From: Eledone cirrhosa
Lineage: Eukaryota
NCBI GenBank assembly: GCA_964016885.1
Contig: OZ024757.1
Span: 40,858,001 to 40,922,000 of the forward strand
DNA: 64,000 bases
Direction: 5' to 3'
Numbering within the stretch: position 1 is the first letter of the stretch; every line of letters begins with the position of its first letter. Positions 43,772 through 61,426 of the stretch are shown one piece after another. Position numbers and translations under genes: made by a program. Under the pieces are notes generated by a model. That model searched no databases. It was not told where the DNA came from and saw only the letters and a list, made by a program, of their open reading frames with translations.

Positions 43772-44224
43772 ATATATATATATATATATATATATATATA
43801 TATATATATATAAACATACGAACATACATACATATATATATATATATATACATATTATTAATAGTAATAAATGGAAAATATCACTATACCATCATATATA
43901 TGATGCCATCGTGATATTTTCCATGTATTACTGTTAACAATATTATAATGCTCCAGATAAAATAAAGTTACTCGTGGAGTGTTTCATATCTGTTATGAAC
44001 ATAATTCTGTTGAATATTCATCAACAAGGCATATAATATTACTCATTGACTATATATATATATATATATATATATATATATAATATATATATATATATAT
44101 ATATATATATATATATATAAGTATTGAAGTTTCCGTTGAAAATAGAAAAAGTCATAGGAGTGAAGAGTGCTCTATGTAAGTACCAAAGGTAAATTTAATG
44201 TATAATAAACAATACAATATAATT

Positions 44225-44294
44225 ACCTCATTACCAGAGGTTTCCTGAATAAGATGAATACAAGAAACGTCCTCATCCATTCGTCGGACAAGGC
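44225..44294 (-). ncRNA. Type I hammerhead motif in the PLE 3' UTR (CCGACGA core variant)
   Basis: gccttgt-CCGACGA-aTGGATGAG..CTTATTCAg-GAAA-CCtctGG-TA-atgaggt. Confidence 0.7.
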
Positions 44295-44644
44295 AATTAA
44301 AAACCAGCCGTATGAATAAATGAGTACAAATTATTCGCAAGTAAACATACATAAAAGCGGCTGAGAGACAATAGAATATATCTGGAGTTGAAAACGCAAG
44401 TGACAGTGATATCAGGTAGTGAAAGAAAATGGGGAAGTAAAATGTGTGAAATTGTGAAGATATAAGGTATGTGAATCAAAAAACAGGGGTGGGGGAGGGG
44501 GGTCACTGGTGGATGTGAAGTAAAAATAAAGTTAAAAATAAAAATAAAAGTAAATCAGAAAGAGAAGTCTGTAAAGAGGGTAATTTAAGGAAAGTGAAGA
44601 ACAAGAGTTTATAGAGGATAAGTATCTGAAAGTGAGTTAAGTTT

Positions 44645-45391
44645 ATATAAGCTGGAAAGCATGTATGATTTCATGTGTGGGCAACTGGTGAAAATTTCTG
44701 TTTTTTGCATTTAGTCAGGTTTTTGGTGATTTAAGGTTCTGAAAATTCAATATTTTTCACTTATGCAGAGTGCGCATCTTCTTGTTCCTCTTGAATATTC
44801 TTTAGATTGGTTCAAAATTGACCAATCTAATTCATATTGGATACCTTGCTCTTTCAAATCCCATATTCTGCTAGCCAGAGCTGTTGTAAATCTTTTTTCA
44901 GGATGTCGGAAAGATACGACATGTGAGTAATAACGCGTTTTGAATTTGTCTTGTGTCATAACCACATATCGTTCGCTGGTGGCTGGTAGGTTGTTGCTGG
45001 TGGTTGTCACTTTAGCCGCATATACAATGGCTTTGGTGTTGCATTTACCTTGTAATGGGCATTCACTTTTGACTCTACAGGAGCAATTTTGATGTTCTCT
45101 GGGTATTTTCTTATTGGGGATGTAAGATTTAATAGGGGGACCGCAGGAGTAGCTGATTTTGACACAGTTTCTATTGAAGATCTTATAGTCTCTATGTGTT
45201 CTAGGGAAATGTTTATCTAAGAGCTCTAGGAATTGTTTGCCTACATTAGATTTAACTGCTAAAGAGTAGGGGGGTGTGAACCAGATTATTTTTCTTTTCC
45301 TATTATTATGTTTAAAGGAGTTACTATTGTTGGGTATGTACTTAATGGGTTCGCTAAATATGCTATTTTGAAGGGCTTTATTATAGTAGGG
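44645..45391 (-). pseudogene. PLE polyprotein C-terminus (GIY-YIG endonuclease), disrupted
   Basis: RKRKIIWFTPPYS..NVGKQFL..DKHFP..KIFNRNCVKISYSC; CSCRVKSECPLQGKC; AIVY..YVVMT..FKTRYYSH; WSIL..CALCISEKY*; in-frame KTEIFTSCPH after two stops. The ORF-track N-terminus (about MSLNKKGTSLV) comes from the adjacent SINE. Confidence 0.88.
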
Positions 45392-45394
45392 TAC

Positions 45395-45546
45395 TAGACT
45401 GGTACCCTTTTTATTTAGCGACATCGAAAGGATGAAAGGTAAAGTTGACTTTTTGCAGGATTTGAAGTCATAGACCAGATAGACAGAAAGATTACCACAA
45501 AGTAATCTATTTCACGTTCTAGCGACCCTGGCAATTCGCTGCCTTA
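45395..45546 (-). mobile_element. Decayed Nin-type SINE
   Basis: ctggtacc..ttattt..gaaaggatgaaaggtaaagttgac..ggatttgaa. Confidence 0.7.
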
Positions 45547-45660
45547 AGGACTAGCGTACGAAACGTTAAAACCCTCTTCCTAGTATATCAAGCGTTAACC
45601 TAATATATCCCTTCCATATACTGTACCGATTGTGTTGTTATTTCTGTTTACATTTCATAT
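45546..45660 (+). mobile_element. Family I element: hammerhead 3' part and tail
   Basis: aggactagcgtac-GAAACGTT..ctaatatatcccttccatatactgtaccgattg, shared with 58974-59095 and 37985-38075. Confidence 0.7.
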
Positions 45661-58925: not shown

Positions 58926-58973
58926 CCATTTCCAACCCGCCCGTACCCTCAATCTATCTTATTTCTCATTCTT

Positions 58974-59008
58974 TCTTCTGATGAAGGATAGCGTCCGAAA
59001 CGTTAAGA
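58974..59008 (+). ncRNA. Minimal type I hammerhead ribozyme motif, canonical core (family I; tail to ~59095)
   Basis: tctt-CTGATGA-aGGA tagcg TCC-GAAA-CG-TT-aaga. Palindromic AACGTT stem III. Confidence 0.85.
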
Positions 59009-59137
59009 CCCTCTTCCTGTTATATCAAGCGGTCACCTAATATATCCCTTCCATATACTGTACCGATTGTGTTGTTATTTCTGTTTACCTTTTACACACA
59101 CACATATATATATTTATATATATATATATATATATTT

Positions 59138-59345
59138 CAGACCAGAAAGAAGAGGAGACACAAAAGAGAACAGATATTCACTGGGGTGGTCACAGAATGT
59201 GTGACGAAAGAATATTGACGAGCTAAAGAAAGAACCAACAATAAAGATAAAGTGAAAAGTTTTTTTTTTTAAATCATACGGAGCGTGTGTTTTTTTTATT
59301 GGCAATACCAACAAGACCATCCCGTAAATATAACAATATTAAACA
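59138..59345 (+). mobile_element. Diverged family B element with degenerate hammerhead core
   Basis: tca-CTGgggt-gGTCACagaatgtGTGAC-GAAAG..tgac and a family B-like tail. Confidence 0.6.
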
Positions 59346-60966
59346 TATTTATATTTCTTAAAGAGAAGTCAATGCCATGTTATAAATAGATTGCTTCCAT
59401 TAGTTTAGACATTTTTTGTCTCTTAATCTCACAACGCACTAAAATATATCGTTTTTCTTTTTATTGATGTGTTTATATATTTATATTCGGTTACACAGTT
59501 TAATGTTTTGTTATGTCTTTCTGTGTTATTTTTTCCTACAGACTTGACTGAAATAGTTAATGTTAACCTCCATGGTGTCTAAATTTCTAGTCATTACGGT
59601 TGATTGTCACAGCACGACCAATTTCGTCATGCGAAAGTATGTATAACAAACGAGTGTAGTGATAGCCTTTTAGAGCAGTACAGAACCTTGAATCGCCTGC
59701 CAATGTCGGCTGCCGTTTATATCAAGGGTACTTATTCTACATTGAAATATAGACACAAATATATAGACATATATATATAGACATATATATATATATATAT
59801 ACATATATATATAGACATATATGTATAGACATATATATGTATATACATATATATGTAGACATATATATATACACATATATATATAGACATATATATATAT
59901 ATATATATACATATATATATATAGACATATATATATATAGACATATATATGTATATACATATATATGTAGACATATATATATAGACATATATATATATAG
60001 AGACATATATATATAGACATATATATATAGACATATATACACACACATATATAGATAGATACATATTAAACACACACATATATATATATATATACACACA
60101 TTTATATAGATACATATATACACATATATATATAGACATATATACACACACACATATATATATATATATATATAGATACATTTATACCTACACATATATA
60201 TAGACACGAATATACACACATATATATAGATAGATATATACACACATACATATACATAGACACATACATACACACAAACGGACAGCAATACAGTCATTTT
60301 CTCCCACACGCACATACATATACAGACAGAGTTAGAAACACCCAGACACACACACATTCACACACACATACACACACATACACACACACACACACTCTCT
60401 CTCTCACACACAGACCGAGACAGTCACACTCTTTCTCACACGTACACACTTACACATACATACACAAAACACAGGCACACAAACAGAATAACAAACACAC
60501 ACAAAGACGCACCTAGACACACAAAGAGACACATACACACACAAAGACACTGACACACACACATATATAGACCCACACACATACACAGAAAATGTCGGCT
60601 GTCATAACATCATGGACGACATGAAACTATATTGTGTATGTTTTATTTTATTTTATATTCCATGGTGAATAACGAGAAATAAATTTAACAGCATTAGTAC
60701 AACAACAACAACAGCAGCAGCAACAACAACAACAACAAGAACAACAACAACAGCAGCAGCAACAACAACAACAACAAGAACAACAGCAGCAGCAACAACA
60801 ACAACAATGGCAGCAGCATCTGTGGCAGCAACGACAACAGCAGATTAACGAACAAGGAAGCATCTACATTTTCGCAAGACTTACTACAAATAGCAGTCCA
60901 AATATCATATATATACATATATATATATATATATATATATATATATATATATATAACACCATGTTT

Positions 60967-61029
60967 TATTTATTCTGACGACTGAAAACAGATATATCTG
61001 CTTTCAAGAAACCACTGGTAAATGAAATA
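60967..61029 (+). ncRNA. Type I hammerhead ribozyme motif, canonical core (family E; element ~60955-61128)
   Basis: tttatt-CTGACGA-cTGAAAaCAGAT at ATCTGcTTTCAa-GAAA-CCAcTGG-TA-aatgaa. Confidence 0.85.
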
Positions 61030-61426
61030 CTTATCTTATGTTGTTTATTACATAACTAATAATCTCTGTAGCCTACATAGAGCACTCTTTTTTCCTGTAC
61101 CTTTCCGGCGGAATTACTTCATTCATACATATATATATATATATATATATATATGTGTGTGTGTGTGTGTGCGTGTGTGTGTGTGTATGTGTTAGGAAAT
61201 TCCGAAGGAAAAGTAAAGGAAAACAGAGTGCTCTATGTATAGAACAGAGCTATTTTTTGTGTTGTTCACTTTCTAATTATATATATATACGCATATATAT
61301 ATATATATATATATATATATATATATATATATGTGTGTGTGTGTGTGTGTGTATATATATACATATATATACATATATATATATGTGTGTGTGTGTGTAT
61401 ATATATATGTATATATTTATTTATTT

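Follow-up and report, generated by a model that had tools for sequence, protein, structure and literature searches.

Penelope-like elements (PLEs) of the Hydra clade, among them Hydra-1_Obim, Hydra-1/2_Ajap and Hydra-2_Amil, carry their endonuclease at the C terminus and are 'generally' under 3 kb long, and a tail at one end and inverted 5′ copies are known features of PLEs, according to the sections cited of their description (Craig et al. 2021, PMC8557442). In the Naiads, as described, the nuclease comes first, the motif is DKA and a canonical hammerhead is absent. For the PLE Poseidon_Ac, the cited parts of an in vitro study report two adjacent internal start sites of the reverse transcriptase (RT), cutting and extension of both DNA strands, and hammerhead cleavage that is dispensable in vitro (Frangieh et al. 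2024, PMC11167929). Here we analyse a 64,000-nt stretch of the Eledone cirrhosa genome (GCA_964016885.1, contig OZ024757.1, positions 40,858,001 to 40,922,000; hereafter the window), in which a truncated PLE, a 'solo' hammerhead island and a third, inverted tail have similar 3′ ends.

That hammerhead islands are linked to PLE ends has already been published, and truncated PLE ends with hammerheads are known. The minimal PLE hammerheads of Cervera and de la Pena (2014, PMC4209133) resemble the islands of the window in being mostly single motifs, probably from truncated PLEs; the passages cited also give opposite-strand pairs 100-700 bp apart and a short palindromic helix III, and predict activity as dimers. 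The metazoan non-LTR (non-long terminal repeat) retrozymes, in the cited part of their description (bioRxiv 10.64898/2026.07.22.740005), are likewise short hammerhead sequences akin to the pseudo-long terminal repeats (pLTRs) of PLEs, with monomers common, but they form tandem units with a hammerhead in each, whereas the solo consists of one pLTR, truncated at random and lacking a fixed 5′ end. At a probability of roughly 0.7, we read the three tails of the window as 5′-truncated ends of three sister Hydra-clade coding families, rather than as a parent element and its mini-element, with a shared motif that is one arm of a hairpin present twice and likely positioning the RT. The features concerned are as follows, with end 1 and end 2 denoting the proximal and distal end sites.

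44120..45391, minus strand: 5′-truncated, dead Hydra-clade PLE copy of family A, subfamily A1 (93% to the pLTR of the A1 copy L031)
44615..45391, minus strand: remnant of the open reading frame (ORF), with the end of the RT thumb, the CxCx5C linker (45071-45085 region) and the GIY-YIG nuclease (tblastn)
44295..44304, minus strand: breakpoint of an internal deletion that removed ~0.8-0.9 kb of the 3′ untranslated region (UTR), by comparison with copies L015 and L011
44220..44299, minus strand: type I hammerhead of family A, with a 12-bp stem I, a mismatch at the base of stem II and a short stem III
44166..44189, minus strand: hairpin 1 of family A, its 5′ arm mutated in the window copy, its 3′ arm the shared 'tail' motif
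60956..61129, plus strand: the solo, what an extreme 5′ truncation has left of the 3′ end (pLTR) in Hydra family B′; it stops at end 2 and has (TA)n on both sides
60961..61031, plus strand: type I hammerhead of family B′, with canonical core (60975-60981) and near-palindromic stem III
61063..61086, plus strand: hairpin 1 of family B′, its first G changed in the window copy; end 1 at ~61056
61191..61255, minus strand: long arm of the third tail; it comprises the 65 nt of Hydra family C that lead up to end 2 and includes hairpin 1 (61227-61250)
61248..61277, plus strand: short inverted arm of the third tail, ~30 nt of family C up to end 1, overlapping the long arm by 8 nt

Three ends of three coding families

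The preliminary description of this DNA had given the PLE and the solo the same ribozyme and tail, and the 3′-end motifs that it quoted are present in both, on the minus strand for the PLE. Formal alignment bears out the tail: the PLE 3′ end (44120-44330, minus strand) aligns locally with the island (60956-61129) at a score of 67, compared with a mean of 19.0 (sd 2.7, maximum 33) in 2000 dinucleotide shuffles, and blastn gives 75% over 88 nt (E 9e-10). The island and the third tail score 60 (shuffle maximum 27), and the PLE and the third tail match weakly (score 33, shuffle maximum 31, E 0.037 in the window). The ribozyme is a different matter, since stems I and II differ and, across the entire end, 61% of 161 columns are identical; by alignment, the PLE end and the solo are related but not identical. 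The third tail does lie inverted, as had been said of 61191-61260, but its element runs to 61277 as a two-armed stub of 87 bases that is 94-97% identical to family C copies. Because the shared tail is found clade-wide, it marks the clade and not descent from the window PLE.

A family A protein search of the 3.0-Gb genome, in which the best 150 of 66,575 candidates were scored, recovered coding relatives with RT, GIY-YIG nuclease and hammerhead, so that the full-length relatives of the window PLE do carry the ribozyme. The 150 scored candidates are 85-93% identical, except for the window itself; three of the 20 fetched (L032, L033 and L036) hold a 712-aa ORF, and the unit from pLTR to pLTR is ~3.7 kb. 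The remnant in the window matches aa 460-718 of a 719-aa frame in L033 at 83% (tblastn), and its frame is broken near 44750 by a stop codon, followed by a frameshift. With its truncation at 45391, these lesions and the 3′ UTR deletion, the copy is, on its sequence, dead. The deletion has ~10 nt common to both sides of its junction, and the same break occurs in most relatives; none of the short contigs bridges the junctions of the window PLE (the chimeric 5′ end and the deletion). At its 3′ end the copy joins a (TA)n tract at end 2, and end 1 of the family lies at ~44196; outside DNA contigs have loose (TA)n ends there, at 44193-44196.

In the family A hammerhead, stem I pairs 44288-44299 with 44220-44231, the core occupies 44281-44287 and the cut is predicted after 44232. 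The core of the window PLE reads CCGACGA, with C at position 4, and that of the island is the canonical CTGACGA. The C recurs in 19/49 family A cores (14 CCGACGA, 5 CCGATGA), tandem copies included and across separate insertions; it is not among the features described for minimal hammerheads in the cited passages of PMC4209133. Because of this C, and because Poseidon cleavage is not needed in vitro, the ribozyme may be dispensable.

For the solo, which is 174 nt long, the genome search gave 2457 first-look candidates, of which the best 40 were scored (94-98% identical) and 29 loci were fetched. Its hammerhead has a predicted cut after 61020 and a folding z of -3.0. A second Hydra ORF is tied to ends of the solo type, in direct order in L127 and L122 and inverted in L055, L080 and L120; the solo is 94-96% identical to the arms linked to this B′ ORF, 83% to family B and 61% to the window PLE. 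Among its relatives the distance from 5′ start to ribozyme core varies between 11 and 904 nt, without a fixed boundary, and 26/29 of them begin 44-904 nt before the core, whereas the solo has only 16 nt. Because the ORF-linked ends are so close and the 5′ starts so scattered, the solo represents, by these comparisons, the truncated B′ copies of the shortest class. Between 423 and 430 nt the 5′ starts form a cluster that resembled a fixed boundary, but it is due to a second insertion in the reference copy, and 7/10 copies compared extend upstream.

The B′ ORF is 71-91% identical to that of family B and 54-73% to that of family A, and in a tree of Hydra-like rows only, with the B′ and C rows partial, B′ groups with B (99/98), apart from A and C. 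Family B is young and has many intact 710-aa copies in units of 4.2-4.4 kb, and its pLTRs are 82-83% identical to the solo. The third family has its own ORF behind its pLTR (L136 and L153), 62-71% identical to those of A and B. As separate observations, the 3′ UTR of family B holds a second, decayed hammerhead that lacks the tail hairpin and lies ~1.5 kb ahead of the pLTR (L112:4332-4430 and 18 further arms), and the 3′ UTR of B′ holds (TA)n and (TG)n tracts of its own that receive insertions (L127:1455-3191; L053, L059, L061), so that these elements carry their own target.

By domain order and motifs, families A, B, B′ and C are new families of the known Hydra clade. The full-length relatives have the RT first and the GIY-YIG nuclease last (712 aa in A, 710 aa in B), RWK and DKT, in place of DKG, in families A and B (R37 W37 K29 and D36 K37 T37 of 37 rows), and the CxCx5C linker together with CxxC and CxH beside a conserved E and N. 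The nuclease core holds no CCHH motif, and the translations of A and B are free of cysteines between its two strands. The pLTRs contain a canonical hammerhead, insertion is into (TA)n, and a dinucleotide repeat follows 146/174 ends. Domain order, motifs and the absence of CCHH are the same in the published Hydra clade (PMC8557442, in the sections cited), and so are (TA)n as the target, the pLTRs, the tail at one end, the inverted 5′ copies and a type I hammerhead whose stem II has a mismatch at its base; by eye the Hydra-1_Obim protein is close to the ORF found here. The families differ from those elements in length (~3.7 kb in A and 4.2-4.4 kb in B, compared with under 3 kb), in their hammerhead stems and in a tail of ~65-75 nt, compared with 30-40. 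A structure model of the family B protein has telomerase RTs (TERT) as its best match, and a model of its C-terminal domain aligns with I-TevI (Z 9.0, rmsd 2.3, 90 aligned); Foldseek with the nuclease alone found no match at E 0.001, and a broader structure search matched GIY-YIG nucleases. Sequence searches with the ORFs in Pfam, NCBIfam and PDB gave nothing significant, and the best 150 of 270 Rfam matches consisted of sub-threshold miRNA hits driven by microsatellites, without a hammerhead.

These assignments bear directly on two other readings, both taken from the preliminary description. The Naiad clade, suggested by the cysteine pattern and the insertion at TA, would fit (TA)n insertion, a CxC-like pattern and the presence of Naiad remnants in cephalopods, but the domain order refutes it: the nuclease is C-terminal and not N-terminal, and DKT, RWK, CxCx5C and a hammerhead in both pLTRs point to Hydra, leaving a Naiad origin of the window PLE next to no probability. 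The proposed tie between hammerhead islands and autonomous GIY-YIG PLEs holds in itself, but the solo belongs to a coding family other than that of the window PLE and is not a mini-element derived from or served by it. A defined, retrozyme-like non-autonomous element that borrows the RT and nuclease of the window PLE family would explain a hammerhead and tail shared with the PLE, the thousands of candidates in the genome and the lack of an intact B′ ORF among those found, and non-autonomous PLE derivatives have been described (PMC8557442 and bioRxiv 2026.07.22.740005, in the parts cited). Its 5′ end, however, is not fixed, the 3′-end alignment across families places the solo with the ORF-linked B′ ends and not with family A, the tail motif is clade-wide, and no head-to-tail tandem of the 174-nt unit occurs in the 29 loci from the best 40 of 2457 candidates, where second copies are inverted; we consider this reading largely refuted already and very improbable. 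The result is a caution that 'solo ribozyme mini-elements' in such genomes are often stubs of unrecognised coding families.

End sites and twin hairpins

Leaving aside 23 duplicates and window copies, we scored 218 pLTR arms from 152 loci: 31 continue into an ORF, 19 are the internal family B hammerhead copy and 168 terminate. All but two of the terminating arms (166/168) stop within two 17-nt windows, together 34 of ~200 nt, with end 1 a few bases ahead of hairpin 1 and end 2 a few bases ahead of hairpin 2, and run into (TA)n. Back-to-back (inverted) pairs combine end 1 with end 2 in 39/42 cases, and 9/12 assessable ends outside this genome's families fall within 0-5 nt of a hairpin start.

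The shared tail is one arm of a bulged hairpin, GCTC..GAGCACT, that occurs twice between ribozyme and start codon in families A, B and C, the order in each being hammerhead, hairpin 1, hairpin 2, start codon, RT and GIY-YIG nuclease. Outside Hydra loci, 78 in number and chosen by protein, contained a hammerhead in 55 cases, which form 35 clusters; two hairpins are present in 20/23 clusters (families) with a full leader, and the strict motif occurs twice in 16/22 leaders, compared with 0/4400 shuffles. Two published sea cucumber Hydra elements match 14 letters of the window tail exactly. The pair above a 2-nt bulge is kept in 51/52 hairpins, as against 0-17/52 for other bulge sizes, and in hairpin 1 it is U-A in 16, C-G in 15 and A-U in 1 of 32, against a permutation mean of 22.6 in a test without control for relatedness.

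We consider it likely, from these positions, that the hairpins determine both sites at which reverse transcription starts and which underlie the PLE 'tail'. Literature searches, which covered sources other than subscription papers and bioRxiv supplements, did not find the twin hairpins in print; the main text of PMC8557442 contains neither 'hairpin' nor 'stem-loop', although its sequences contain the motif, and the cited parts of the Poseidon_Ac paper (PMC11167929) describe no clade-wide RNA signal. The supplements of 10.64898/2026.07.22.740005 and PMC11167929 may bear on this novelty. What is new here, then, would be a conserved, covarying RNA signal beside both start sites.

A proposed docking model and its alternatives

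We lean, by a modest margin of belief, to a model in which the clade-wide hairpin pair provides docking sites for two telomerase-like RTs, each starting its cDNA a fixed few bases upstream. A transcript reading through from the pLTR into the next unit would contain the two hairpins, to which a pair of protein molecules would bind; these would cut both strands of a (TA)n tract; copying would proceed upstream from both sites, and the two cDNAs, after early truncation, would be joined through a short shared sequence. Very early truncation would then yield the 174-nt solo and the 87-nt third tail. Such stubs are probably dead, each produced in cis by the family to which it belongs rather than carried as a passenger of the window PLE; any stub that stops at end 2 is without hairpin 2. 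Poseidon_Ac offers a parallel in that its tail is defined by two internal starts and that cutting and extension affect both strands of AT-rich DNA (PMC11167929, in the parts cited); in the families studied here, unlike in Poseidon_Ac, the leader contains a pair of separate, conserved bulged hairpins, with an end site just upstream of each.

Several observations weigh against the docking model and the wider reading of the three tails. The case for a role of the hairpins in initiation is one of position and conservation, and in Poseidon_Ac, according to the cited text of PMC11167929, initiation lies inside one AC-rich stem-loop of the ORF and not upstream of a hairpin. The locus queries contained end 2, which inflates the end 2 counts, with the partner arm free to vary; the remaining 3/12 outside ends do not fit, and the 12 exclude 2 ends cut by the contig end and 14 tails without a close leader. 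The permutation test takes no account of relatedness among the hairpins. Hairpin 2 of A-C holds an insert of 66-67 nt, that of A and B retains only the first pair above the bulge, energy folding of this genome's hairpin 1 is weak (z -0.7 and -2.1) and favours an unbulged register, and both main window copies (A and B′) have an altered 5′ arm of hairpin 1. Among the relatives of the solo, no intact B′ ORF was recovered, and late B′ stubs may for this reason have been moved by the family B protein. The 5′ end of Hydra-1_Obim (supplement of PMC8557442, seen by eye) shows a hairpin 2 stretched as in A-C, which suggests that the long insert marks a subclade.

An alternative keeps the three tails as Hydra-end stubs and gives the hairpins another task, as promoter, translation or packaging signal or general protein-binding site, with AT-rich letters immediately ahead of the hairpins that pair with the cut (TA)n and so set the ends. 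Both end sites are indeed TA-rich, hairpin 2 sits 20-40 nt before the start codon in most leaders, and the folding energy is weak. However, other AT-rich stretches of the leader go unused (2/168 ends elsewhere), the spacing from end site to hairpin is kept across families in which other letters differ, and the covariation indicates RNA structure rather than a DNA motif; we regard this alternative as unlikely, though clearly less so than the mini-element.

If the docking model is correct, the PLE tail and the back-to-back inserts would be products of one two-primed reaction, and the hairpins would parallel the setting of the template boundary by RNA structure in telomerase. The unexplained PLE tail would become testable, an RNA element recognised by a telomerase-related RT would be named, and there would be a rule for which non-coding repeats can be mobilised. 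Because it is young and intact, family B could serve as a ready test system for a (TA)n-targeting retroelement.

Neighbouring islands

The window PLE is part of one TA-bounded island in which the Hydra A arm is followed by two further pieces (45392-45665), an old fragment, which we take to be tRNA-SINE-like (resembling a tRNA-derived short interspersed nuclear element), and an inverted end of another hammerhead family, D.

45392..45545, minus strand: fragment of an old dispersed repeat, abutting the PLE at its 5′ break (several other copies in the window match it at ~75% over 73 nt)
45546..45665, plus strand: 3′ end of the unrelated hammerhead family D, cut inside the ribozyme and closing the island at (TA)n (91% to 58984-59102)

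The composite island stems either from two insertions that met at the old repeat or from a single event involving two different RNAs. Family D, present in the window at 58960-59114 and 37987-38063, has 1595 first-look candidates with variable 5′ ends and no GAGCACT tail, and no ORF was linked to it in 20 loci. More islands with hammerhead cores of other families, some in inverted pairs, lie at 4003-4235, 33893-33915, 43672-43710 and 53030-53165, and further ones at 61460-61482, 62440-62468 and 63407-63429. Adjoining a family A copy elsewhere in the genome (L034:4955-6025) is a 357-aa frame of another PLE clade, with the end of the RT and a cysteine-rich GIY-YIG region. The window also contains a ~1.8-kb block in two to three copies at 25190-28918, either a duplication or an assembly artefact, and a 45-bp minisatellite at 41305-42507 with long open frames on both strands.

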